From Thermodesulfobacteriota bacterium (GTDB taxonomy: Bacteria; Desulfobacterota; Desulfobacteria; Desulfobacterales; SURF-7): a stretch of 64,000 nt of DNA. This document shows positions 6,696 to 31,847 of this stretch, one piece after another (within the stretch, counting starts at the first letter, position 1; every line of letters begins with the position of its first letter). A program made the position numbers and the translations under genes. Below the pieces are notes generated by a model. It ran no database searches. It was not told the DNA's origin and worked only from the letters and a program-made list of their open reading frames with translations. The DNA lies in contig JBMORA010000001.1 in the NCBI GenBank assembly GCA_049320885.1, forward strand, positions 132,095 to 196,094, read 5' to 3'.

Positions 6696-7745
6696 ATGCC
6701 ACTCGCGACCTCTGAGACGGACCCGCTCCTGATCCACTTCCTGACATCCGGGGAAGAACCGGATTTACTGCGTTTTTATCAGGCCAATCTGGATAGATAC
6801 GACCTGTTTCAGACGCTGTGGTCCTGGCGGAACGGCAATGCCGGCGCTTCGGGCGGCGAAACGGCCGTGATCGCCGGGCGGGAAAACCGGCTGGTGGGCG
6901 CCGTGGGTATTGTGCCGGTGGATATGCGGATCAACGGGGAGCCCATCCGGGCTTCCTGGCAGCAGGACTCGCTCATCGCCGCCTCGGAACGGGGAAAAGG
7001 CGTGGGCAAAAAGCTGGTATCGGCCGCGGCCGAACCTTACGACCTGGTCATGGCCAAGGGCACCAGCCGGGCCATGTATGGTTTGCGCAAAAGCATGGGC
7101 TACAGCGACGTGCCGTATTCGGATTATCTGCTGGCGGTAAATTCCCCGGAAACCCGCCTGAAGCATCCTGCCAAAAGCCTGCTGTTCCGGATGCTGTGGC
7201 TTTGGAAACAACTCCTGCCGCTTCCCCGGGAAAACGCCGATTTGCCGGTCAGGGAGATCAGCGCCTTTGAGGAGGCAGCCTACGACCACCTGGCCGAAAA
7301 AATGAGCCGCGGGGGGACGTTCGGTCCGTATAAAAGCGCGGCCTATCTGAACTGGCGATATATGGCCTGCCCGGTAAAACAGTACACGGTTTTTCAAGCC
7401 GGAAACGATGACCCTCGCGGCGCCGTTGTTCTGGGCTTTTCAGCAGAAGCCCCCATGGACGGCTGGGTGGTCGATTTGATCTGCCCTTCGGATGACAAAC
7501 AGTGCGCATGCCGGCTGTTGACCGCGGCCATGCGATTTTTCAAACAGCGACGGTTCAACAAGATCTGGACCTTTGCGACCCTGCCCGCAGCACGCCGGTG
7601 GCTGCTGCGTTTCGGTTTTGTGCCCACGCGGATTTCCCCCCGTTTTACCTGCAAATTCAAGGACGAGTCCCGAACGCCGGCCTCCTCTCCGGATATTCCA
7701 TGGAATATCTGGCACGGCGACGGGGATCTCGAACTATATCTCTGA
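6696..7745 (+). CDS. GNAT-family acyltransferase
   Basis: Acetyl-CoA-binding motif A-like SERGKGVGKKLV. The ORF is tightly packed in the operon. Confidence 0.6.
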   Translation: MPLATSETDPLLIHFLTSGEEPDLLRFYQANLDRYDLFQTLWSWRNGNAGASGGETAVIAGRENRLVGAVGIVPVDMRINGEPIRASWQQDSLIAASERGKGVGKKLVSAAAEPYDLVMAKGTSRAMYGLRKSMGYSDVPYSDYLLAVNSPETRLKHPAKSLLFRMLWLWKQLLPLPRENADLPVREISAFEEAAYDHLAEKMSRGGTFGPYKSAAYLNWRYMACPVKQYTVFQAGNDDPRGAVVLGFSAEAPMDGWVVDLICPSDDKQCACRLLTAAMRFFKQRRFNKIWTFATLPAARRWLLRFGFVPTRISPRFTCKFKDESRTPASSPDIPWNIWHGDGDLELYL

Positions 7746-15895: not shown

Positions 15896-15910
15896 TGGCA
15901 CAATGCTTGC
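15896..15910 (+). promoter_or_regulatory. sigma-54 (-24/-12) promoter, TGGCACAATGCTTGC
   Basis: Exact fit to TGGCAC-N5-TTGC. It lies about 60 nt upstream of ATG 15971 in an A+T-rich 364-bp intergenic region. Confidence 0.7.
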
Positions 15911-15970
15911 TTTTATTATGGCAAACAAAGCATTTGTTGGATTTTTTTAATAGAGAAGGAGGCTACGGCT

Positions 15971-19202: not shown

Positions 19203-19901
19203 ATGATCAAGGCACCTCACGCTGGATATGGAGCGGCCCATTCGTTCCTGCTGCTGCTGGCGCTGCTGATGTTGCGCGGCTGCGAACCCGGAATGGTGGA
19301 CGATGCGGTGCTCAACGATTTCGAGTCGGACGCGGATCTGGACGCGGTGCGCTGGACTTGCGGCCGGCTGTACGCCCTTTCGGAAAACCATGCCACGTCC
19401 GGACAAAAATCCCTGGTCATGACCCTGTATCCGGCTGCCTATCCGGGACTGGCCCTGAGGCTGCGGCAAACCGACTGGCGGGGATTCACCCATCTATGCA
19501 TGGATATCTTCAATCCCCAACCGGAGACATTGTCCATCACGATCCGGGTGGATGACCGCGAGGAGTATCCGCCATATGCGGATCGCTTCAATCAGAGCTT
19601 CTCGATGGCACCGGGTAACAATCACCTGGAGATACCGTTGAACAGCCTGATCACCTCCGGCTCCCGGCGGCCCCTGGACCTGGAAAACATCCGGCGGTTT
19701 TTATTTTTCATGGTGGATACGAAACAGATCTATCACTTCCATGTCGACAACATCCGTCTCGTGAATGTGCTATCCTTCAACACTGTTTCTCACTCAATCA
19801 CATACCGGACGACGGTCCACGTCCCGTTGTCATACAACACCCTGCCGGCATACTGCTTTGCCAGTTCCTTCCTGGTTGCCTCGTCCAGTAGAAATACATA
19901 G
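19203..19901 (+). CDS. putative lipoprotein with a CBM-like beta-sandwich domain
   Basis: LLLLALLMLRGC lipobox-like signal. The FESDADLDAVRW...ATSGQKSL...HVDNIRLV layout resembles carbohydrate-binding-module-like domains. The 3' tail overlaps the convergent gene, so the true 3' end is uncertain. Confidence 0.5.
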   Translation: MIKAPHAGYGAAHSFLLLLALLMLRGCEPGMVDDAVLNDFESDADLDAVRWTCGRLYALSENHATSGQKSLVMTLYPAAYPGLALRLRQTDWRGFTHLCMDIFNPQPETLSITIRVDDREEYPPYADRFNQSFSMAPGNNHLEIPLNSLITSGSRRPLDLENIRRFLFFMVDTKQIYHFHVDNIRLVNVLSFNTVSHSITYRTTVHVPLSYNTLPAYCFASSFLVASSSRNT

Positions 19902-21883
19902 TTTCTCTTCATCAGGACATCCGGGATCCGGTATCCCTGGTACACGGCTTCCACGGTCCTGACCCTTTCCTCGATCTCCGCCTTCCCCAGGTATTTGCCC
20001 ACCTTGCCGAAACGATACCCCTCTAAATAAACAGGCCGTTCCGCGAACGTACTGGTCTGGTAGGCCACGGGTCGGCCGTTTTTCAGCTGAATGAACGGCG
20101 TGACCACCATGGTGTCCCGGGGAGTGTTCTCGCGGATATATTGCAGGGCCGCGTAGAGTTTCGGGGTAATAGTCTGATGGGCTTTTCGATAGTCGGTTTT
20201 GGAAAATTTGGCATCCATGGCCTGCCCGATTCTGCCGTACATGAAAAAATTATACGCATAGTCCTTGCGCACCCAGTTCGGCAGGCTCACAAACGGCAAC
20301 GCCAGGATCACCAGTGCCCCGACCAATCCATACAGCCGGCCGTTTCGGTAATAATCGGCCAGCAGGAAAAACACGTTTTCCCTTGCCAGATAGGACACGA
20401 AAAACAGATCCAGCAGGAAAACCGCGCTGGTGATGAAATAGGCCGTATCCTGGGGCCCCAGTCGGATACTGTAGGTGATGGCCAGGGAGCCGAGGATAAC
20501 AAAGAGAATTTTGGTGTGATTCTCCTCCATACCAGCGGTTTTCATCCAATAGGGCACCAGCAGGCGGTATGAAAAATACAGCAACAGATAGATGGGCAAA
20601 ATGCAAATGGTAAATACGGCATGGGCCGGGAGTTGAAACGATTCCGGCACATATTTGTAAATCACGTCCAGAAACGGCCTGGAAAAGGCATTGCCGGTTA
20701 CGTATGAAAGCGGAACCAACCAGGCGCCGGACTTGCCCGCCACCTTATCCACCAGCACCTGCCCCCGAACCGGCAGCCAGAAAAAAGCGCCGTAGGCCGC
20801 GGCGAACCCCGTGAGGCCGCCGCCGATATCGGCCAGGTCCCGCCCATTGAACCGCTTCCGGGCAACCTGAAAAACTCCCCAGAAAAGCATACCGGCTGCA
20901 AGCGAGGCGCCGATGGAGCCTTTTGCCGCCGTGGCCAGAAAAAAGCCTGTCAGATAGACCAGGAGGCTGCCGGTTTTGGTATAGCGACCGCTATGGATCA
21001 TCAGATGGATCACCGTAAAAAGCAGGATAATCCCCATGAAATTGGTATTGCTGTTCAGATAGGAGTTGACCTTGACCTCATGAACCAGGGAGAAGCCCCC
21101 GCCGAAAAGCAGCACCGCCAGGCCATAAAATAGATAGGCCCGTTTACCCTTGACGAATTGTTGGAGAAGAAGCGCCATGTTCAGGATCAGAAACGGCACC
21201 AGCGGCACGAAACCATATTGCAGGCCCACCATATGAGGGACCAGTCCGGTCACAAGCGCCAGGTGCGCGCCGAGAATGTGCACCAGGATATGATAGCCGA
21301 CACCGGGACGACTCTCCACGTTCAGGGACTTGAGGGGAAAGTCCGACACCAGGGAGACCGTATGCCCCGCATTCCAGACATGATCATGGAAAATATCCAG
21401 GGGCAGCAGGCCGGGCGTTGCCCTGGACAGAAAAAACAGCCCGTTGAGAATCAGAACGAACAAGAGAAAAACCGCAAGGGTCCAGCCGGACAAAGCCGCG
21501 GCGGCGCGGAAATGGTATCCCGCGGCATCCCGGAAAAGGTTCCTGAACGGCCCGGCTAAAAATGCAAGCATTGGCCAGACAACCCCGTAATAAAAACCAG
21601 GGAGTCCCGTCAACTGGCCGGCAAGATAGGAGGCGCATACATTGGCCAGGCCGAAGATGGTCGCCAGGGGAAGGAGGGTGTCCCAGGCCGGTTGATGCGT
21701 GAAATCCCGCTGGAAAAACCGCAAAAAAACCAGGGCCATGATATATCCCGGCAGGAGCACTGCGACGAAAAAATGGCCCAGGGCCAGAAACACGCCGTCC
21801 AAACCGATGGCAAACAGATAAAAGAACGCCAGGTTGGCGGCCAGCAACCCAATGGAAACCCCGATGGCAAGAGCTCTCATCAT
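19790..21883 (-). CDS. large polytopic membrane protein with a C-terminal soluble domain (candidate GT-C glycosyltransferase or Wzy-type polymerase)
   Basis: About 14 or more hydrophobic helices followed by a ~150-aa soluble C-terminus. The start is taken at ATGATG 21883/21880, preceded by AAAGGAG. The CDS is confident; the function is only an architectural guess. Confidence 0.6.
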   Translation of the reverse strand: MMRALAIGVSIGLLAANLAFFYLFAIGLDGVFLALGHFFVAVLLPGYIMALVFLRFFQRDFTHQPAWDTLLPLATIFGLANVCASYLAGQLTGLPGFYYGVVWPMLAFLAGPFRNLFRDAAGYHFRAAAALSGWTLAVFLLFVLILNGLFFLSRATPGLLPLDIFHDHVWNAGHTVSLVSDFPLKSLNVESRPGVGYHILVHILGAHLALVTGLVPHMVGLQYGFVPLVPFLILNMALLLQQFVKGKRAYLFYGLAVLLFGGGFSLVHEVKVNSYLNSNTNFMGIILLFTVIHLMIHSGRYTKTGSLLVYLTGFFLATAAKGSIGASLAAGMLFWGVFQVARKRFNGRDLADIGGGLTGFAAAYGAFFWLPVRGQVLVDKVAGKSGAWLVPLSYVTGNAFSRPFLDVIYKYVPESFQLPAHAVFTICILPIYLLLYFSYRLLVPYWMKTAGMEENHTKILFVILGSLAITYSIRLGPQDTAYFITSAVFLLDLFFVSYLARENVFFLLADYYRNGRLYGLVGALVILALPFVSLPNWVRKDYAYNFFMYGRIGQAMDAKFSKTDYRKAHQTITPKLYAALQYIRENTPRDTMVVTPFIQLKNGRPVAYQTSTFAERPVYLEGYRFGKVGKYLGKAEIEERVRTVEAVYQGYRIPDVLMKRNYVFLLDEATRKELAKQYAGRVLYDNGTWTVVRYVIE

Positions 21884-22069
21884 GACTCCTTTTGTTCTGG
21901 TCTCCCGCCTTGGCGGAAGCAACGGAAGAAGGACCTGTCGGCGTGTCACTCTATAGAAGGAACGGGATTGTTATATTCCGACTTCTGATTCCTGTCTACT
22001 GACTTCTATGAAGTCAGCAAAGTTTTCTTGTGGATGGATATTTGGGGGGTTGACGGACAGGAGAATCGT

Positions 22070-22100
22070 GTTCCCCGTGCGCCATCGGCGCACAGGGAAC
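22070..22100 (-). terminator. stem-loop downstream of paralog 1 (terminator-like, no U-tract)
   Basis: GTTCCCCGTGCGCC-atc-GGCGCACAGGGAAC, 13 nt after the stop at 22113. Its core is shared with the hairpin at 24721-24750. Confidence 0.45.
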
Positions 22101-22112
22101 ACGGATGGAACG

Positions 22113-24296
22113 CTACCTCATGGAAGGCGGCAGTTGGGTGAAATCATAATATTCGTAAAGACCGGTGTGAACGGAATTGAGATAGGTCAGCAACTGCTGG
22201 TCTGTATACCCATCGACGACATAACGCTTGATGAATCCCGTTTCAGCGCCGTTTTGCGAATTCCAGTTGGTGTAGAACATCCGGCCCTGGTGGAAGGTGT
22301 CGATATAGTATTTCCCGGAAAAGCAGGTGTTGAAGAAGATCATCTTGTATTTGCAGTCTTCCGGCTGGATGTCCTTGCTGTTGGTGGCATCTATGATGGT
22401 CTTGTTGCCGTACCGGGAGTCCTCGAAATGGGACCGGTATTCGTCCTGGTTGTCGATGCGGGAGGACTGCCGGGTGTTGGCGGGGTTGACCGCGGACAGA
22501 TAATCCGCGATCATCCGGCCGCTGCCACTGCCGGTAAGGGTCACGGTGACCGCACCCTCCACCACCGGATAGGTGCCGATGGAAGCAGTCACATAATTGC
22601 CGGCCGGTGTGTCGGCGGGTTCCCGCTGGTTCAGGGTGACGGTCCCAAGCACGGTGTTGTTCTGTTGGATGGTGTAGGTCACGGCTGTATCATTGTTCGG
22701 ATCCGGGTCATAGGTGACGGAAAAATCATAGGTGCCGGCCGGATTTCTGGTAGGATAGAATGCCAGGGTATACGTGAAGGTGTCCGCAATCGTCTGGTTG
22801 GGGGTGAAACTGTAGGTATACCCGCGGAATCCATAGAGGGTGCTGTTTTTCTGCACCGCCCAGTTGCCGCTGTATTCCACGTGGCTGAATTCCGGTTTTG
22901 AGTTGACGATGAAATAACTCGGGTTGTTCACCGGATTCGGCTTGGCGCCCGTGGGGGAATACCAAGCCGAGCCGCTGCCCTGGAAGCGCTCGAGGTATTG
23001 GCCGTTGGACGAGGCTTCCACCCGGTAGTGGGTGGGATCGCCCGGCAGGGTATAGGTCAGGTAATAATTGTAAGCCGGCAGGCGGCCCGCCGGATCATCC
23101 CAGCCATAGGGCCATTTGGCGTCGCTGCCGTCCTGATAGATGGGCGTCCAGTTGGGATAGGCCTGGCTGTAGCGGAACCCGGCGGTGGTGACATCCACCA
23201 TGTCCGAGGAGCAGTTGAAGATCAGGTTGTCGTCCACATAACGCACATTCTGGAGCGCGGTGTTAAACGGCGGGAAGGTCAGGCCCAGACCGTAATTGGA
23301 ATGCCCGCGGATCAGGATCACGGCGCCCTCTTCCCGGACTGCAGCCAGGAATTGTTCCTTGGTCTTCACCGGGTGGAAGAAATAGGTCACCCCGTTTTTG
23401 GGACTGGTGTAACGCCAGATCCCGTCCACCTTGACGGCGCCGTAGCGCGACAGGCTCTGGCCGGCCACTTCCGCGAAATTGGAAATGCCGCCGTAAATTT
23501 CCACGCAGTAGATATTTTCCGACGCGGAGGTCAGTTTGATGTAGGCCTCCTTCACCATGGTATCGCTGCCGAACTCATTGGAAGCGGTCAGGCTGACGGT
23601 ATAGTCACCGTCTTGGTCATACACATGGGCCGGATTCTCCTCGAAGCTGGTCTGACCGTCACCGAAATCCCAATACCATTCGGTGGCCGCGCCGCCGGTG
23701 CTCAGGTCCGTGAACTGGATCGTGGCAGGCGCACCGCCGATGGTTTTATTGGCGGAAAACTCCGCCACCGGCGGCAGGGTGTTGATCACCTCGGTGAACT
23801 TCACCGCATCGGCGCAGGTGGTATAGGTGCTGTTGGTGCCGGTTATGGTGACTGTGTATACAATACCGGCCACGAAGGAATAGGTTCCAAGGACATTCCA
23901 TTGCCCGCCGTTGACGCGCTGGTTGACCCGGACCGTGGCGGTTCCGTTGGCATGCCGGATGGCAATGGGCGCGCTGGTCACCCGGTTGGCAAACACCGTC
24001 CACCAGGCGGAGACTTCATATTCGGCTGTGGTGGGCGGAATGAAGGTATAGGTATAGGTCGCATTGTTTTTGGCATAGATGCTGTCCACACCATAGGGAT
24101 CCACGCCGCTGGAAACCAGCCACGTACCGGTATAGGACGTTTCATTGTCGCCGTTGTCGATGATGATGTCGGCCGCGGCAGAGGCGAGCCCCACCACCAT
24201 AGACAGTGTTAACAGGATAAATATACTGAATATACGGGCCGGAACCGGCCTCCATCTCGCATTTTTCTTTTCCGTGATGTTTCTGAAAGTGTTCAT
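22113..24296 (-). CDS. secreted multidomain protein, paralog 1 (one CBD-like+PKD module plus a conserved ~470-aa C-terminal region)
   Basis: GGAG lies 5 nt before ATG 24296. Signal peptide present. IIIDNGD...GTW...PYGVDS...NGGQWN...CADAVKFTE domain (golvesin/Xly-type CBD-like). PKD domain (WDFGDGQTS...NPAHVY). C-terminal region ends LYEYYDFTQLPPSMR. Confidence 0.85.
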   Translation of the reverse strand: MNTFRNITEKKNARWRPVPARIFSIFILLTLSMVVGLASAAADIIIDNGDNETSYTGTWLVSSGVDPYGVDSIYAKNNATYTYTFIPPTTAEYEVSAWWTVFANRVTSAPIAIRHANGTATVRVNQRVNGGQWNVLGTYSFVAGIVYTVTITGTNSTYTTCADAVKFTEVINTLPPVAEFSANKTIGGAPATIQFTDLSTGGAATEWYWDFGDGQTSFEENPAHVYDQDGDYTVSLTASNEFGSDTMVKEAYIKLTSASENIYCVEIYGGISNFAEVAGQSLSRYGAVKVDGIWRYTSPKNGVTYFFHPVKTKEQFLAAVREEGAVILIRGHSNYGLGLTFPPFNTALQNVRYVDDNLIFNCSSDMVDVTTAGFRYSQAYPNWTPIYQDGSDAKWPYGWDDPAGRLPAYNYYLTYTLPGDPTHYRVEASSNGQYLERFQGSGSAWYSPTGAKPNPVNNPSYFIVNSKPEFSHVEYSGNWAVQKNSTLYGFRGYTYSFTPNQTIADTFTYTLAFYPTRNPAGTYDFSVTYDPDPNNDTAVTYTIQQNNTVLGTVTLNQREPADTPAGNYVTASIGTYPVVEGAVTVTLTGSGSGRMIADYLSAVNPANTRQSSRIDNQDEYRSHFEDSRYGNKTIIDATNSKDIQPEDCKYKMIFFNTCFSGKYYIDTFHQGRMFYTNWNSQNGAETGFIKRYVVDGYTDQQLLTYLNSVHTGLYEYYDFTQLPPSMR

Positions 24297-24408
24297 AGTC
24301 TCCGTTCTCCCATTGTTATCTTGATACAAACAAGGATCATCATGTTGCGTGAATCCGGCCCACATCCATGGGCCGCATCCTTCCTGCTTTATGTACGGCA
24401 TCAGTAGA

Positions 24409-24423
24409 GCAATAGGCATGCCA
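24409..24423 (-). promoter_or_regulatory. sigma-54 (-24/-12) promoter of paralog 1, TGGCATGCCTATTGC on the minus strand
   Basis: Fits TGGCA(C/T)-N5-TTGC. It lies ~113 nt upstream of ATG 24296. The same element recurs before paralogs 2 and 3. Confidence 0.7.
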
Positions 24424-24520
24424 CCCGCCCCTGCCGGTCACAAAGAAATCCATTGTTATATTATTATGTAATTTGAAATATTTATAATATTTCAAAATCG
24501 AGCGGTTCCGACATGCAACC

Positions 24521-24556
24521 GGCTTGTGTAATTGTTTTCCTATTTATCATGTACCA
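24521..24556 (-). promoter_or_regulatory. conserved upstream block (candidate enhancer/UAS) of paralog 1
   Basis: Core TTTTCCTATTTAT (24535-24547) is identical to 27859-27871 and lies the same 112 nt from the -24 element. Confidence 0.45.
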
Positions 24557-24720
24557 TTTTACCGATATGCAGCACCTTACCGACTCATTTCTGCAACCCC
24601 GTTCCGTTGCAGGGAGGCATCCCACTCATTTTTTGCAGCACCAGGGGGTATCCAGATGCTATCGTTGGAGTTTCTTGTGGATGAATGCGGCTGGCGCGGA
24701 TGGCCGGGTGGGATCGTGCT

Positions 24721-24750
24721 CCCCGTGCGCCTGACAAAGGGCGCACGGGG
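24721..24750 (-). terminator. stem-loop downstream of paralog 2
   Basis: CCCCGTGCGCC-tgacaaag-GGCGCACGGGG, 16 nt after the stop at 24766. Confidence 0.45.
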
Positions 24751-24765
24751 AACAGGGCTGGCCTG

Positions 24766-27615
24766 CTACCTCATGGAAGGCGGCAGCTTGGTGAAATCAT
24801 AGTATTCATACAGGCCCGGATGTACGGAATTGATATAGGTCAGCAATTGCTGATCCGAATATCCATCCACGACATAGCGTTTGATGAATCCCGTTTCCGC
24901 GCCGTTCTGCGAATTCCAGTTGGTATAGAACATCCGGCCCTGGTGGAAGGTGTCGATGAAATATTTCCCGGAAAAGCAGGTGTTGAAGAACATCATTTTG
25001 TACTTGCAGTCTTCCGGCTGGATGTCCTTGCTGTTGGTGGCATCCAGGATGGTCTTGTTGCCGTACCGGGAATCCTCGAAATGGGACCGGTACTCATCCT
25101 GGTTGTCGATGCGGGAGGACTGCCGGGTGTTAAGGGGATTGACCGCCATCAAATAGTCCGCGATAATCCGGCCGCTGCCGCTGCCGGTAACCGTAACAGT
25201 CACAGCCCCTTCCACCACGGGATAGGTGCCAAGGGAAACGATTACATACTTGGCTGCCGCCGTATCCGCGGGTTCCCGCTGATTCAGGGTCACGGTCCCG
25301 AGCACGGTGTTGTTCTGTTGAATGGTATAGGTCACGGCCGTGTCATTGTTCGGATCCGGGTCATAGGTGACCCGAAAATCATAGGTTCCTGCCGGATTTC
25401 TGGGCGCATAGAATGCCAGGGTATAGGTGAAGACATCTGCTCCCGTCTGGTTGGGGGTATAGCTGTAGGTATATCCTATGAATCCATAAAGCGAGCTGTT
25501 TCTCTGGGCGGCCCAGTTGCCGCTGTATTCCACGTGGCTGAATTCCGGTTTCGTGTTCACAATAAAATAACTCGGATTGTTCAACGGATCGGGCTTGGCA
25601 CCGGTGGGGGAATACCAGGCCGGGCCGCTTCCCGCGAAGCGCTCGAGGTATTGGCCGTTGGACGAGGCTTCCACCCGGTAATGCGTCGGATCGCCTGGCA
25701 GCGTGTAGGTCAGGTAATAATTGTAGGCCGGCAGGCGGCCCGCCGGATCATCCCAGTCATAGGGCCATTTGGCGTCCGTTCCGTCTTGATAGATGGGGGT
25801 CCAGTTGGGATAGGCCTGGCTGTAGCGGAACCCGGCCGTGGTCACATCCACCATGTCCGAGGAACAGTTGAAGATCAGATTGTCGTCCACATAGCGCACA
25901 TTCTGGAGCGCGGTGTTGAACGGCGGGAAGGTCAGGCCCAGACCGTAATTGGAATGCCCGCGGATCAGGATCACGGCGCCCTCCTCCCGGACCGCCGCCA
26001 GGAACTGTTCCTGGGTCTTGACCGGATGGAAGAAATAGGTCACGCCGTTTTTGGGGCTGGTGTAGCGCCAGAGTCCGTCCACCTTGACGGCGCCGTACCG
26101 CGACAGGCTCTGGCCCACGACTTCCGCGTAGTTGGTGATGCCGCCGTAGATTTCAACACAGTAGATGTTTTCCGACGCAGAGGTCAATTTGATGTAGGCC
26201 TCCTTCACCATGGTGCCGCTGCCGAACTCATTGGAAGCGGTCAGGCTGACGGTATAGTCACCGTCTTGGTCATACACATGGGCCGGATTTTCCTCGAAGC
26301 TGGTCTGGCCGTCGCCGAAATCCCAATACCATTCGGTGGCCGCGCCGCCGGTGCTCAGGTCCGTGAACTGGATCGTGGCGGGAGCGCCGCCGGAGGTTTT
26401 ATTGGCGGAAAACTCCGCCACCGGCGGCAGGGTGTTGATCACCTCGGTGAACTTCACCGCATCGGCGCAGGTGGTATAGGTCGTGGAAACGCCGGTTATC
26501 GTGACTGTGTAGACCATTCCGGCTACAAAGGAAAAGGTCCCCAGGGAATTCCATTGTCCGCCGTTCAGGCGCTGGTTGACATAGACGGTTGCTGTTCCGT
26601 TTGCATGCTGGATGCGTATCGGCGCGTTTGTGACCCGGTTCGAATAGTAAGTCCACCAAGCGGACACTTCATATTCGGTAGTGGTGGGTGGAATGAAGGT
26701 ATACGTATAGGCGGCATTGTTCTTGGCATAAACGCTGTCGACGCCGTAGGGATCCACCGCAGTGGAAACCAGCCAGGTTCCGGTGAAGGAAGTGCCATTG
26801 TCCCCATTGTCGATGATGACTTCACCCGGATCTCCGCCGGTTCCGGCGCTGATGGTGATGTAGGCCGTCTTGACAGCCGTATCGCTGCCGAATTCATTGG
26901 CGGCGGTGAGGGTCACGGTGTACACGCCTTCCTGCTCATATACATGGGCCGGATTCTGTTCGGTACTGGTCTGGCCGTCGCCGAAATCCCACAGCCAATC
27001 CGCAGGAATACCGCCCGTGCTCCGGTCGCTGAACTGGATGGTGGAAGGAACCCCGCCGGTGGTCCTGTCCGCTGAAAAATCGGCTGCCGGCGGTAGCGTA
27101 TTGATGATTTCGGTGAATTTCACCGCATCCGCGCAGGTGGTGTAGGTGCTGTTGGTGCCGGTGATGGTGACCGTGTACACAACCCCGGCGACAAAGGAGA
27201 AGGTCCCCAGGGAATTCCATTGCCCGCCGTTCAGACGCTGGTTGACATAGACGGTTGTTGTTCCGCTGGCGTGCTGGATGCGGATCGGCGCGCTGGAAAC
27301 CCGGTTCGAAAAATAGGTCCACCAGGCAGACACCTCGTATTCCGAAGTGGTCGGCGCCGTGAAGCTATAGGTATAGGTTGCGTTGTTTTTACAGTAGATG
27401 CTGTCCACGCCATAGGGGTTGACACCGCTCGATACCAGCCAGGTTCCGGTTGCGGAAGTCCCGCTGTCGCCGTTGTCAATGATCACATCGGCTGATGAAC
27501 TGGCGGCTCCGAACACCAGCGAAAGGGACAGCATGATCACAACCGGTAAAAAATAGGCGTGCAGCTGCCTTGGCCTCATTTTTTTCTTTTGCAAATTATT
27601 CTTGAATGAATTCAT
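24766..27615 (-). CDS. secreted multidomain protein, paralog 2 (two CBD-like+PKD modules plus the conserved C-terminal region)
   Basis: GGAGG lies 6 nt before ATG 27615 (MNSFKNNLQKKK..., matching the N-termini of the other paralogs). Same domain plan as paralog 1 with one extra module. Confidence 0.85.
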   Translation of the reverse strand: MNSFKNNLQKKKMRPRQLHAYFLPVVIMLSLSLVFGAASSSADVIIDNGDSGTSATGTWLVSSGVNPYGVDSIYCKNNATYTYSFTAPTTSEYEVSAWWTYFSNRVSSAPIRIQHASGTTTVYVNQRLNGGQWNSLGTFSFVAGVVYTVTITGTNSTYTTCADAVKFTEIINTLPPAADFSADRTTGGVPSTIQFSDRSTGGIPADWLWDFGDGQTSTEQNPAHVYEQEGVYTVTLTAANEFGSDTAVKTAYITISAGTGGDPGEVIIDNGDNGTSFTGTWLVSTAVDPYGVDSVYAKNNAAYTYTFIPPTTTEYEVSAWWTYYSNRVTNAPIRIQHANGTATVYVNQRLNGGQWNSLGTFSFVAGMVYTVTITGVSTTYTTCADAVKFTEVINTLPPVAEFSANKTSGGAPATIQFTDLSTGGAATEWYWDFGDGQTSFEENPAHVYDQDGDYTVSLTASNEFGSGTMVKEAYIKLTSASENIYCVEIYGGITNYAEVVGQSLSRYGAVKVDGLWRYTSPKNGVTYFFHPVKTQEQFLAAVREEGAVILIRGHSNYGLGLTFPPFNTALQNVRYVDDNLIFNCSSDMVDVTTAGFRYSQAYPNWTPIYQDGTDAKWPYDWDDPAGRLPAYNYYLTYTLPGDPTHYRVEASSNGQYLERFAGSGPAWYSPTGAKPDPLNNPSYFIVNTKPEFSHVEYSGNWAAQRNSSLYGFIGYTYSYTPNQTGADVFTYTLAFYAPRNPAGTYDFRVTYDPDPNNDTAVTYTIQQNNTVLGTVTLNQREPADTAAAKYVIVSLGTYPVVEGAVTVTVTGSGSGRIIADYLMAVNPLNTRQSSRIDNQDEYRSHFEDSRYGNKTILDATNSKDIQPEDCKYKMMFFNTCFSGKYFIDTFHQGRMFYTNWNSQNGAETGFIKRYVVDGYSDQQLLTYINSVHPGLYEYYDFTKLPPSMR
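26160..27491 (-). repeat. 2 x 666-bp in-frame tandem coding repeat (CBD-like+PKD module), boundaries approximate
   Basis: The IDNGD anchor codons recur at 26806 and 27472 on the plus strand, exactly 666 nt apart. Confidence 0.85.
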
Positions 27616-27732
27616 ATTCATCCTCCGATGGTTGTTGTCCCGCTTGGAAACAAGAATGCGCCATATTTTATGAATCCACCTGTCATCCATGTGGCGCGAA
27701 CTTCCTAATTTTTCCTGTATGAACGTTTTAAC

Positions 27733-27747
27733 GCAATAGACATGCCA
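27733..27747 (-). promoter_or_regulatory. sigma-54 (-24/-12) promoter of paralog 2, TGGCATGTCTATTGC on the minus strand
   Basis: Fits TGGCA(C/T)-N5-TTGC, ~118 nt upstream of ATG 27615. Confidence 0.7.
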
Positions 27748-27848
27748 GCCCCGATACCAAAAAATGACGGGAAAATCAATTTTAATTTCTATTTTATTCA
27801 AACGAGTTATAAAATATTGCCGTCCAGCCGCGCTGGCCCGGAAAGAAC

Positions 27849-27876
27849 TATGCAATATTTTTCCTATTTATTGTGA
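27849..27876 (-). promoter_or_regulatory. conserved upstream block (candidate enhancer/UAS) of paralog 2
   Basis: AACTATGCAATATTTTTCCTATTTATTGTG. It shares the TTTTCCTATTTAT core with paralog 1 and the AACTATGCA...TTCCTAT part with paralog 3. Confidence 0.45.
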
Positions 27877-28028
27877 AAAAATATACCGAAATAGCACCGG
27901 TCCGTTATAGTCCAAATTCTGATTGATCTCTATCGGCTTTTTTCAGATGGGAGCAGTCGCGGATGACAGGGAGGGTTCCGGTTTCCAGTGCATCCATCAA
28001 GGACGAACCGGAAACCGGGAATGGCCCG

Positions 28029-31000
28029 CTACCGCATGGAAGGCGGCAGTTTGGTGAAATCATAGTATTCATACAGGCCCGGATGAACGGAATTCACATA
28101 GTCCAGCAACTGCTGATCCGAATATCCATCCACCACATAGCGTTTGATGAATCCCATTTCAGCACCGTTTTCCGAATTCCAGTTGGTATAGAACATCCGT
28201 CCCTGATGGAAGCTGTCGATGAAATATTTCCCGGAAAAACAGGTATTGAAAAACATCATTTTGTATTTACAGTCTTCCGGACGGATGTCCTGGCAATTGG
28301 TGGTGTCCAGGATGGTCTTGTTGCCGTACCGGGAGTCCTCGAAATGGGACCGGTATTCGTCATTGTTGTCGACCGCGAAGAACTGCCAGGGGATGGCCGG
28401 ATTGAATGCCGCCAGACCATCCGCGATCATCCAGCCGCTGCCGCTGCCGGTCAGGGTAACGGTGACCGCGCCTTCCGCCACGGAAAAGGTTCCAAGAGAG
28501 GCGAGCACATAACTCCCGGCCGGTGTGCCGGCGGGTTCCTGCTGGTTCAAGGTCACGGTGCCGAGCACGGTATTGTTCTGTTGAATGGTGTAGGTCACGG
28601 CCGGGTCATTGGTCGGCTCCGGATCATAAGTGACTTTGAAGTCGTAGGTACCGGCTGGATTTCTGGGTGCGTAAAACGTCAGGGTATAGGTAAACGTATC
28701 GGCGATTGTCTGGTTGGGAGTGTAGCTGAAGGTATATCCCGCGATCCCATAAAGGGTGGCGTCTTTCTGCACCGCCCAGTTGCCGCTGTGCTCCACGTGG
28801 CTGTATTCCGGTCTGGTATTGGCGATGAAAACCTCCGGATTGCTCACCGGATCGGGCTTGGCGCCCGTGGGGGAATACCAGGCCGGACCGCTGCCGGCGA
28901 AACGCTCAAGGTATTTTCCGGTGGAGGAGGATTCCACCCGGTAGTGGGTGGGATCGCCCGGCAGGGTGTAGGTCAGATAATAATTGTAGGCCGGCGTGCG
29001 GCCCGCCGGATCATCCCAGGCATAGGGCCAAATGGCGTCCGTGCCGTCCTGGTAGATGGGCGTCCAGTTGGGATAGGCCTGGCTGTACCGCAGACCGGCC
29101 GTGCTGACGTCCACCATGTGGGAGGAACAGTTGAAAATCAGGTTGTCGTCCACATAACGCACATTCTGGAGCGCGGTGTTAAACGGCGGGAAGGTCAGGC
29201 CCAACCCGTAATTGGAATGCCCGCGGATCAGGATCACGGCACCCTCCTCCCGGACCGCGGCCAGGAACTGTTCCTGGGTCGTGACCGGATGCAGAAAATA
29301 GGTCACGCCGGTATTGGGATTGGTATAGCGCCAGATGCCGTCCACCTTGACGGCTCCGTACCGCGACAGGCTCTGGCCGGCGACTTCCGCATAATCGGTG
29401 ATGCCGCCGTAAATTTCCACACAGTAGATATTTTCCGACGCGGAGGTCAGCTTGATATAGGCCGCCTTCACCATGGTGTCGCTGCCGAATTCATTGGCAG
29501 CGGTCAGGCTCACGGTATACTCGCCCTCCTGCTCATACACATGGGCCGGATTCTGCTCGGTGCTGGTCTGGCCGTCGCCGAAATCCCACAGCCATTCGGT
29601 GGCGTTACCGCCGGAGCTCAGATCCGTGAACTGGATGGTGGCGGGTGCGCCGCCGATGGTCTTGTTCGCTGAGAAATCAGCTGCCGGTGGGAGCGTGTTG
29701 ATGATTTCGGTGAATTTCACCGCATCGGCGCAGGTGGTATAGGTGCTGTTGGCACCGGTGATGGTGACCGTGTACACAACCCCGGCGACAAAGGAGAAGG
29801 TCCCCAGGGAATTCCATTGCCCGCCGTTCAGACGCTGGTTGACATAGACGGTTGCAGTTCCGCCGGCATGCTGGATGCGGATCGGTGCGTTGGTGACCCG
29901 GTTCGAAAAGTAGGTCCACCAGGCGGAAACTTCATATTCAGCCGTGGTGGATGGAATGAAGGTATATGTATAGGCGGCATTGTTCTTGGCATAAACGCTG
30001 TCGACGCCGTAGGGATCCACTGCAGTGGAAACCAGCCAGGTGCCGGTGAAGGAGGTGCCATTGTCCCCGTTGTCGATGATGACTTCTCCCGGGTCTCCGC
30101 CCGTTCCGGCGGTAATGGTGATATAGGCCGTCTTGACAGCCGTATCGTTGCCGAATCCATTGGTGGCGGTGAGGGAGACGGTGTACACGCCTTCCTGCTC
30201 ATATACATGGGCCGGATTCTGTTCGGTGCTGGTCTGGCCGTCGCCGAAATCCCACAGCCATTCGGTGGGGATACCGCCCTCACTTTGATCGGTGAACTGG
30301 ATGGTGGCAGGAGCGACACCGGTGGTTCTGTCCGCTGAGAAATCGGCTGCCGGTGGGAGCGTGTTGATGATTTCGGTGAATTTCACCGCATCGGCGCAGG
30401 TGGTGTACGTGCTGTTGGCGCCAGTGATGGTGACCGTGTAGGTTATTCCGGCGACAAAGGAGAATGTCCCCAGGGAATTCCATTGGCCGCCGTTCAGGCG
30501 CTGGTTGACATAGACGGTTGTTGTTCCGCTGGCATGCTGGATGCGGATCGGAGCGCTGGAAACTCGGTTCGAAAAATAGGTCCACCAGGCAGATACCTCA
30601 TATTCGGACGTTTTCGGCGCCGTGAAACTGTAGGTATAAGCGGCATTGTTCTTGGCATAAACGCTGTCAACACCGTAGGGATCCAGCGCGGTGGAAACCA
30701 GCCAGGTTCCGGTTGCGGAAGTTCCATAATCCCCGTTGTCGATGATGATTTCCCCCGGGTCGCCGCCTGTTCCGGCGGTAATGGTGATGTAGGCCGTCTT
30801 GACAGCCATATCGCTGCCGTATTCATTGGCGGCGGTGAGGGTGACGGTGTACACGCCCTCCTGCTCATACACGTGCGATGGATTCTGCCCGGTGCTGGTC
30901 TGGCCGTCGCCGAAATCCCACAGCCAATCCGTGGGAATACCGCCCGTGCTCCGGTCGCTGAACTGGATGGTGGCCGGAACCATGCCGGTGGTCCTGTCCG

Positions 31001-31544
31001 CTGAAAAATCGGCTGCCGGCGGGAGCGTATTGACAATCTCGGTGAACTTCATTGCATCGGCGCAGGTGGTGTACGTGCTGTTGGCGCCGGTGATGGTGAT
31101 TGTGTAGGTAATTCCGGCGACAAAGGAGAATGTCCCCAGGGAATTCCATTGGCCGCCGTTCAGGCGCTGGTTGACATAGACGGTTGTTGTTCCGCTGGCA
31201 TGCTGGATGCGGATCGGGGCGCTGGAAACCCGGTTCGAAAAGTAAGTCCACCAGGCAGACACCTCGTATTCCGAAGTTGTCGGCGCCGTGAAACTGTAAG
31301 TGTAGGTGGCATTGTTCTTGGCATAAACGCTGTCAGCGCCGTAGGGATCCAGCGCGGTGGAAACCAGCCAGGTGCCGGTGGCGGAAGTCCCGCTGTCGCC
31401 GTTGTCGATGATGATGTCAGCCGCTTCACCGGCCGTTCCAGCCGCCAATGTCAGGACCAGCATGATAACCACATGGAACAAAGAGGTCTGTAACCGCCAA
31501 AGCCACATGTTGTTCTTTTCCGCGTTGTTTCTGAATCTGTTCAT
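28029..31544 (-). CDS. secreted multidomain protein, paralog 3 (three CBD-like+PKD modules plus the conserved C-terminal region)
   Basis: ATG 31544 (MNRFRNNAEKNN...). Signal peptide present. Three IIDNGD-initiated modules followed by the same C-terminal region as paralogs 1 and 2. Confidence 0.85.
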   Translation of the reverse strand: MNRFRNNAEKNNMWLWRLQTSLFHVVIMLVLTLAAGTAGEAADIIIDNGDSGTSATGTWLVSTALDPYGADSVYAKNNATYTYSFTAPTTSEYEVSAWWTYFSNRVSSAPIRIQHASGTTTVYVNQRLNGGQWNSLGTFSFVAGITYTITITGANSTYTTCADAMKFTEIVNTLPPAADFSADRTTGMVPATIQFSDRSTGGIPTDWLWDFGDGQTSTGQNPSHVYEQEGVYTVTLTAANEYGSDMAVKTAYITITAGTGGDPGEIIIDNGDYGTSATGTWLVSTALDPYGVDSVYAKNNAAYTYSFTAPKTSEYEVSAWWTYFSNRVSSAPIRIQHASGTTTVYVNQRLNGGQWNSLGTFSFVAGITYTVTITGANSTYTTCADAVKFTEIINTLPPAADFSADRTTGVAPATIQFTDQSEGGIPTEWLWDFGDGQTSTEQNPAHVYEQEGVYTVSLTATNGFGNDTAVKTAYITITAGTGGDPGEVIIDNGDNGTSFTGTWLVSTAVDPYGVDSVYAKNNAAYTYTFIPSTTAEYEVSAWWTYFSNRVTNAPIRIQHAGGTATVYVNQRLNGGQWNSLGTFSFVAGVVYTVTITGANSTYTTCADAVKFTEIINTLPPAADFSANKTIGGAPATIQFTDLSSGGNATEWLWDFGDGQTSTEQNPAHVYEQEGEYTVSLTAANEFGSDTMVKAAYIKLTSASENIYCVEIYGGITDYAEVAGQSLSRYGAVKVDGIWRYTNPNTGVTYFLHPVTTQEQFLAAVREEGAVILIRGHSNYGLGLTFPPFNTALQNVRYVDDNLIFNCSSHMVDVSTAGLRYSQAYPNWTPIYQDGTDAIWPYAWDDPAGRTPAYNYYLTYTLPGDPTHYRVESSSTGKYLERFAGSGPAWYSPTGAKPDPVSNPEVFIANTRPEYSHVEHSGNWAVQKDATLYGIAGYTFSYTPNQTIADTFTYTLTFYAPRNPAGTYDFKVTYDPEPTNDPAVTYTIQQNNTVLGTVTLNQQEPAGTPAGSYVLASLGTFSVAEGAVTVTLTGSGSGWMIADGLAAFNPAIPWQFFAVDNNDEYRSHFEDSRYGNKTILDTTNCQDIRPEDCKYKMMFFNTCFSGKYFIDSFHQGRMFYTNWNSENGAEMGFIKRYVVDGYSDQQLLDYVNSVHPGLYEYYDFTKLPPSMR
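29423..31420 (-). repeat. 3 x 666-bp in-frame tandem coding repeat (CBD-like+PKD module), boundaries approximate
   Basis: Anchor codons at 30069, 30735 and 31401, spaced exactly 666 nt. Confidence 0.85.
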
Positions 31545-31653
31545 TACGTCCGCCCCCGGGTTTGTTATCTGAATCACTAAATGGTTTTGCCTGTTACAGC
31601 GTCAATCCGCCAGCACCTATGGTATCTATTATCAATAGCGCCCCATCGCAAAA

Positions 31654-31668
31654 GCAATAGACATGCCA
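31654..31668 (-). promoter_or_regulatory. sigma-54 (-24/-12) promoter of paralog 3, TGGCATGTCTATTGC on the minus strand
   Basis: 15-mer identical to the paralog 2 promoter, ~110 nt upstream of ATG 31544. Confidence 0.7.
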
Positions 31669-31752: not shown

Positions 31753-31784
31753 AACTATGCACTATTGTTCCTATGCTATGTACT
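31753..31784 (-). promoter_or_regulatory. conserved upstream block (candidate enhancer/UAS) of paralog 3
   Basis: AACTATGCACTATTGTTCCTATGCTATGTACT. It is related to the blocks upstream of paralogs 1 and 2, about 100 nt from the -24 element. Confidence 0.4.
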
Positions 31785-31832
31785 ATTTTTCGTATTATTA
31801 TATAAAATTTTAACCATATACAAACCTGCCCA

Positions 31833-31847
31833 CCTGCCTTAGGCAGG
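31833..31847 (-). terminator. weak stem-loop after the aminotransferase gene
   Basis: CCTGCC-tta-GGCAGG, 51 nt downstream of the stop at 31898, followed by T/A-rich sequence on the minus strand. The stem is short. Confidence 0.3.

Follow-up and report, generated by a model that had tools for sequence, protein, structure and literature searches.

The sequence element at positions 24423-24408 and two sister sites in the 64,000-nt stretch of DNA analyzed here (the window, C1:132095-196094) are very likely functional RpoN -24/-12 promoters, through which three paralogous genes for putatively secreted proteins would be switched as independent but coordinated single-gene units. The window belongs to a metagenome-assembled genome (MAG) of 5.6 Mb that is 98% complete and whose closest DNA occurs in a biofilm metagenome. 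The genome carries rpoN, recognized through one PF04552 match (C64:151275-151751, 210 bits) within a 510-aa open frame. Additionally, Sigma54_activat (PF00158) has 47 matches genome-wide, 42 of them strong, corresponding to approximately 42 genes for enhancer-binding proteins (EBPs). All PF00158 matches on contig C1 fall outside the window, in agreement with the preliminary description of this DNA, which had reported that no EBP gene is present there.

The three genes lie one behind the other on the minus strand. Paralog 1 (22113..24296) encodes 727 aa, paralog 2 (24766..27615) 949 aa, and paralog 3 (28029..31544) 1171 aa; each product comprises a signal peptide, one, two, or three Golvesin_C+PKD modules, respectively, and a C-terminal region of ~470 aa. 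These C-terminal regions are 83-92% identical to one another, show no family match, and returned nothing in a sequence search of the PDB. In the run from which the MAG probably derives (X1), the Logan contigs over window positions 22300-31300 are broken up, many of them fit two places, and one joins 26921 to 30829; the module count of one, two, and three therefore rests on the MAG assembly. The paralogs end in ...YDFTQLPPSMR, the extreme C-terminus of paralog 1 being encoded at window 22116-22145 (minus strand). Most of the homologs P0001-P0010 (34-100% identity) share a near-invariant end, ...(D/N)F(T/N)x(L/K)PPS(M/L)(R/Q), directly before the stop codon, and P0008 is two residues longer (PPSMRIR). 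This LPPSMR-type C-terminus could serve as a sorting or processing tag, one that is not PEP-CTERM.

Genes for glycosyltransferases, a polysaccharide deacetylase, an MBOAT acyltransferase, a flippase, and a DegT aminotransferase are found nearby, along with genes for a TIGR03016-like outer-membrane protein and an XrtA/PEP-CTERM-type amidotransferase that scores below its cut-off. An exosortase gene (EpsH, PF09721) is located at C1:122482-123222, ~9 kb before the start of the window, with a second at C18:23857, and there is a PEP-CTERM gene near C1:115 kb. In this context of sugar genes and exosortase, the window belongs to a large exopolysaccharide locus linked to an exosortase. Downstream of paralog 1, a gene at window 19790-21949 (minus strand) encodes a 719-aa multi-pass membrane protein without a Pfam or NCBIfam match; on the contigs of L006 and P0004, the same position is taken by a gene for 701-704 aa without a Pfam match, and genes for Wzy_C and a flippase come after it.

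On the minus strand, the letters from 24423 down to 24409 read TGGCATGCCTATTGC, and the next base, at 24408, is T, giving the element TGGCATGCCTATTGCT (24408..24423). The GG of the -24 element occupies 24422/24421 and the GC of the -12 element 24410/24409, and 113 nt separate the C of this GC from the A of the paralog 1 ATG (24296-24294). Both the sequence and the distance are exactly as the preliminary description had put them, as is the correct -24/-12 spacing, with GG and GC 10 bp apart. That description had also called the site near-consensus, and the GG-N10-GC geometry is indeed exact, the single departure from the textbook TGGCAC-N5-TTGCW being a C to T change. The site fits the consensus of this genome, TGGCAT...TTGCT, better than the textbook one, and the paralog 1 site matches the genome's own consensus fully. 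Transcription would be predicted to start at ~24397, leaving a 5' UTR of ~100 nt.

The further claim that the same element precedes the other two paralogs is borne out by near-identical copies on the minus strand. The paralog 2 promoter, TGGCATGTCTATTGCG (27732..27747), consists of the 15-mer TGGCATGTCTATTGC at 27747-27733 followed by G and lies 118 nt 5' of ATG 27615, whereas the paralog 3 promoter, TGGCATGTCTATTGCT (31653..31668), has the same 15-mer at 31668-31654 followed by T and lies 110 nt 5' of ATG 31544. The corresponding predicted starts are ~27721 and ~31642. All three elements are thus placed on the coding strand, in non-coding DNA, 110-118 nt 5' of the start codons.

The abundance and spacing of such elements were compared with expectation both in the window and across the genome. 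The exact pattern TGGCAY-N5-TTGC occurs four times in the window against 0.44 expected, a count reached by 0 of 100 shuffles, and all four matches are intergenic and face a signal-peptide gene. A loose pattern allowing up to two mismatches is not enriched in the window (24 observed versus 31.8 expected) and was therefore discarded as evidence. Across the whole 5.6-Mb genome, TGGCAY-Nx-TTGCW was found 51 times at x=5, compared with 3-12 times at each of the remaining spacings (x = 0 to 11); similarly, TGGCAT-N5-TTGCT was found 33 times, compared with 0-4 at other spacings. Owing to this N5-specific excess, about nine in ten N5 matches should be real RpoN sites. The genome consensus was taken from the same matches, with T as the sixth base in 36 of 51 and as the final base in 47 of 51. 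The preliminary description had proposed scanning with an RpoN position weight matrix (PWM); when the matrix was trained on other sites only, with the three paralog promoters left out, the promoters of paralogs 3, 1, and 2 ranked 60, 129, and 153 of 11.2 million genome positions.

A fourth sigma-54 promoter is located on the plus strand at window 15896-15911. It has the perfect core TGGCACAATGCTTGCT, holds genome-wide PWM rank 8, and lies 60 nt before ATG 15971, the start of a gene for a 354-aa signal-peptide protein without a Pfam or NCBIfam match. A connection of this promoter to the enhancer of the paralogs through CTATGCTATG was considered, and the enhancer PWM gave it no support. Since no match to the paralog enhancer PWM accompanies it, a different activator probably serves the promoter at 15896.

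Upstream of the promoters, a second conserved feature was identified. Each of the five canonical promoters, namely those of the three paralogs and of the orthologs L020 and L006, is preceded by two or three copies of the 17-mer GGwAAAAAwwTTACAyA, which are mostly direct repeats 21-23 bp apart, with the proximal copy 103-117 bp upstream of TGG. The candidate enhancer of paralog 1 (24524..24563, minus strand) contains two direct 17-mers, GGAAAACAATTACACAA at 24540-24524 (-117 from TGG) and GGTAAAATGGTACATGA at 24563-24547 (-140). That of paralog 2 (27848..27887, minus strand) contains GGAAAAATATTGCATAG at 27864-27848 (-117) and GGTATATTTTTTCACAA at 27887-27871 (-140). Paralog 3 has three direct copies (31755..31814, minus strand) at 31771-31755, 31792-31776, and 31814-31798, corresponding to -103, -124, and -146 with a spacing of 21-22 bp. 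These candidate upstream activator sites, at -103 to -146, fall inside the range of ~80-150 bp typical of sigma-54 systems. The layout of paralog 1 recurs in the orthologs L020 and L006, and L020 has an inverted third copy in addition.

A PWM built from the 17-mers was trained on these promoters, and its scores on them are consequently circular; the distal 17-mer of paralog 3, which was outside the training set, scored 17.7. Scores of at least 18 were obtained at 11 genome positions, of which six are the window's own copies and five lie elsewhere. The best outside match (23.3) is placed 157 nt upstream of the -24/-12-like element of a PEP-CTERM gene, and by our own calculation from the PWM counts the chance of such a placement is ~1 in 1000. 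Several other candidates were set aside. Searching the genome with a strict 20-mer enhancer PWM yielded no further copy, the match at C12:148823 lying inside an EBP coding region and being attributed to chance, as was a 17-mer match inside an EBP coding region at C1:109481. An enhancer-like match at 7373-7389 has no sigma-54 site downstream, and EBP genes near the enhancer-like matches C18:88909 and C62:34476 were too weak as candidates to be named as the activator.

Between enhancer and promoter, the spacers contain tracts of 70-92% A+T. The tract of paralog 1 (24459..24498) is 92% A+T over 40 nt, and the equivalent tract of paralog 2, which starts at 27779, is 88% A+T. Such a tract is probably a bendable spacer. 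No match to the IHF consensus WATCAANNNNTTR with up to one mismatch was found in the spacers. The three sites are real and very probably functional sigma-54 promoters, each with a conserved candidate enhancer.

Because the three copies go back to a single duplication, they do not count as independent samples, and independent evidence was sought elsewhere. The Golvesin_C-PKD family is absent among 60 relatives and present in metagenomes. L020 has a single-copy gene with 83% C-terminal identity and the same synteny, a DegT gene followed by the family gene; its upstream element is TGGTATGACTATTGCT. L006 to L008 show 61% identity in the C-terminal region and have TGGTACGAACCTTGCT 100 nt before the ATG. 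In both the L020 and the L006 lineage, GG-N10-GC is retained in the same place, and substitutions fall at tolerated positions. Among the three paralogs themselves, the intergenic alignment has 25% invariant columns overall, and no 15-mer in it is better conserved than the sigma-54 core, in which 14 of 15 columns are invariant. This support owes its independence only to the two ortholog lineages and to the contrast that the diverged flanks provide.

These comparisons bear on the idea that the motifs are mere passengers of a recent tandem duplication, alike only on account of the youth of the copies and without promoter function, and that the genes are transcribed from another promoter. The duplication unit does take in intergenic DNA, the 3' regions of paralogs 1 and 2 are homologous, and the C-terminal regions are as similar as noted above, all of which passengers would share. 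Nevertheless, the core has kept 14 of 15 columns while its flanks have diverged, the single-copy orthologs of two other lineages have changed at tolerated positions only, and the spacing-specific excess across the genome makes a chance match unlikely. Moreover, no sigma-70-like -35/-10 pair was found on the minus strand of the three intergenic regions as an alternative. We therefore regard the passenger explanation as very improbable and favor functional sigma-54 promoters.

The distant homologs in L012, ~40% identical, include three paralogs with intergenic regions of ~440 nt. At L012:2379, 7193, and 10729, TGGCATG-N4-nTGAT is found 151-155 nt before the ATG, with A in place of the canonical C at -12, and a weak enhancer-like GGTAGnnnATTACnTAA occurs at -95 in two of these three paralogs. 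Apart from this non-canonical -12 element the layout is unchanged, and the promoter is therefore not canonical throughout the family.

Whether the array works as separate units or as one operon depends on what lies between the genes. The intergenic regions measure 469, 413, and 353 nt, and very stable, G+C-rich hairpins begin within ~10 nt of each stop codon. The hairpin 3' of paralog 1 (22067..22103, minus strand) has 17 bp, is G+C-rich, lies 10 nt past the stop codon, and carries no U-tract; when folded, the surrounding 93-nt fragment has an MFE of -35 kcal/mol (z = -5.9). A 15-bp hairpin 3' of paralog 2 (24717..24754, minus strand) is homologous to it, indicating that the duplication unit includes the 3' end, and a third hairpin follows the stop codon of paralog 3 (27978..28018, minus strand). 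Two further minus-strand hairpins are terminator-like and have T-runs: a weaker one downstream of paralog 3 (27901-27885) and one 3' of the upstream aminotransferase gene (31825..31847), which would insulate the array from the sugar genes. Since the main 3' hairpins lack U-tracts, some read-through is possible, and termination between the units is not assured.

Such read-through, whether it begins at the paralog 3 promoter or in the sugar genes upstream, could extend to the 719-aa gene and make the array effectively one operon to which the internal promoters add little. All genes are co-directional, the 719-aa gene has no promoter match of its own, and the paralogs of L009 are packed 22-40 nt apart, without space for promoters, as would be expected from an operon. 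However, each copy has kept a full enhancer-plus-promoter cassette under apparent selection, the intergenic regions of 350-470 nt are long, the post-stop hairpins are very stable (z down to -5.9), T-run terminator-like sites occur at 27901-27885 and 31847-31825, and no intergenic RNA contig was found. A single operon consequently appears unlikely. The preliminary description had held the genes to be independent units and not members of a single operon. The individual enhancers and promoters, the intergenic regions, the hairpins, and the absence of sigma-70-like pairs support this claim well, with the qualification that read-through between units may occur.

Searches of the leaders and genes against Rfam were empty, and folding an alignment of the three leaders gave -1.7 kcal/mol and no conserved structure. 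The RNA data consisted of assembled contigs of environmental metatranscriptomes from other samples. RNA contigs of 99-100% identity from soil and wetland samples partly cover the coding sequence of paralog 1, and one contig of 94% identity, from a relative, spans 24156-24384, its end falling 13 nt inside the predicted transcript; the upstream intergenic regions are covered by none of these contigs. These contigs are weakly compatible with the sigma-54 start model.

Giving every gene a separate sigma-54 promoter with an enhancer upstream is a familiar design, tightly switched, that has precedents in similar loci. PEP-CTERM genes, as described by Haft 2006 (PMC1569441), form single-gene operons with large upstream regions and a sigma-54 motif ~71 nt from the start codon; a 17-nt motif, sometimes repeated and ending in TTTACA, is separated from the sigma-54 motif by ~63 nt (63 +/- 11), and PrsK, PrsR, and PrsT are associated with the system. 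RpoN dependence and a mapped start have been shown for pepA of Aquincola tertiaricarbonis (PMC9850573). In D. vulgaris, PrsR (DVUA0057) binds PEP-CTERM genes by DAP-chip (PMC3333781), and predicted DVUA0057 sites have been published (PMC4641369). The cassettes described here resemble those of PEP-CTERM genes in several respects. Their products are secreted signal-peptide proteins encoded in or beside an exosortase-linked polysaccharide locus, the genes are single-gene units whose upstream non-coding DNA exceeds 200 nt and includes a sigma-54 motif, and a repeated 17-nt motif ending in TTACA lies ahead of a -24/-12 element, the leader then being 70-120 nt long.

Given this likeness, the promoters might belong to the canonical PEP-CTERM regulon, with the repeats acting as the "motif 1" bound by PrsR under the sensor PrsK. 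The layout of Haft 2006 and the exosortase gene linked to the locus would fit, as would the position of the best outside enhancer match, one of only five scoring at least 18, upstream of a PEP-CTERM promoter. The PEP-CTERM genes of this genome point the same way: an enhancer-PWM match better than most mononucleotide shuffles was obtained in five of six PEP-CTERM promoters, and our own Fisher combination of these shuffle counts gave p ~1e-4, a value that is indicative only because the enhancer PWM is A/T-rich.

Other properties argue against PrsR itself. In this 98%-complete genome, the best score for PrsR (TIGR02915) was 425.7 bits against a curated cut-off of 502.6, and that for PrsK (TIGR02916) was 103.1 bits against 300; likewise, a tblastn search with D. 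vulgaris PrsR produced no outlier ortholog, the best match being just 40% identical. A PWM of 28 published DVUA0057 sites (TGTCGGA-N5-TTACA) scored above shuffles on none of the five promoters. Unlike the PrsR motif, the repeats of the paralogs have a degenerate left arm and a gap between GG and TTACA that is longer by one base, so that the TTACA arm alone is shared; they are separated from the promoter by 86-100 nt, compared with the ~63 nt published for PrsR motif 1. The paralogs also lack the PEP-CTERM domain (TIGR02595), the seven TIGR02595 matches of the genome being other genes; unlike PEP-CTERM genes, the cargo here is Golvesin_C-PKD proteins ending in ...DFTxLPPSMR. We consider membership in the canonical regulon highly unlikely. 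Since the features that define the PrsR regulon fail here, the cassette is best regarded as PEP-CTERM-like in its working without being a member of that regulon.

Of the genome's seven PEP-CTERM genes, all but one are preceded by a -24/-12-like element at 70-110 nt from the start codon; these six include the genes at C1:297146-298700, C1:114551, C48:24728, C54:18470, and C47:13259. The C47 promoter contains GGAAAAAATTTACACAA, a near-perfect inverted copy of the enhancer of the paralogs. It is conceivable, although we would sooner expect otherwise, that the LPPSMR Golvesin_C-PKD proteins form an undescribed class of exosortase-locus matrix proteins, co-regulated with PEP-CTERM genes by a PrsR-independent sigma-54 activator that recognizes GGwAAAAAwwTTACAyA; this would amount to a second, "PEP-CTERM-box-like" circuit in several uncultured lineages.

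The promoters can also be placed among sigma-54 systems more generally. As in NtrC-class promoters (TGGCAC-N5-TTGCW), the GG-N10-GC geometry is exact, the upstream site lies at the usual distance, and the spacer is A+T-rich. In contrast to that class, however, the upstream sites are mostly direct repeats rather than the usual TGT-N11-ACA palindromes, no IHF consensus is present, and the activator is not encoded beside its targets. The association of sigma-54 with the bacterial exterior has been put forward by Francke et al. 2011 (PMC3162934) and Kazakov et al. 2015 (PMC4641369). The present targets, being genes for extracellular or matrix components, conform to this theme, and the genome is rich in EBPs, as in sulfate reducers.

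Sequence features, statistics, and conservation are the basis of the model that we propose, and binding, looping, the start site, and the dependence on RpoN and an EBP are accordingly given as expectations. From the known behavior of sigma-54, the holoenzyme would sit on the promoter as a closed complex and fire only upon ATP hydrolysis by an AAA+ EBP, which would be encoded elsewhere among the ~42 candidates. This activator would bind the tandem 17-bp repeats, 21-23 bp apart and centered 100-150 bp upstream, and would contact the promoter by looping across the A+T-rich spacer. The entire cassette, comprising enhancer, spacer, promoter, leader, gene, and 3' hairpin, appears to have been triplicated in tandem, and through this triplication of the whole cassette each secreted Golvesin_C-PKD protein would be switched independently but coordinately. 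Overall, the arrangement is probably the PEP-CTERM-gene design of Haft 2006 applied to another cargo family and operated by a different activator.

Our understanding of sigma-54 itself is unchanged by these findings, and their novelty is modest: a PEP-CTERM-style cassette would serve another family of secreted proteins through a different activator, in a genome without PrsR and PrsK. The candidate enhancer provides a defined sequence that can be used to seek this activator among the 42 EBPs. On this reading, three secreted proteins that look abundant, encoded in the polysaccharide locus of a biofilm organism, would be switched tightly on and off in response to a signal.
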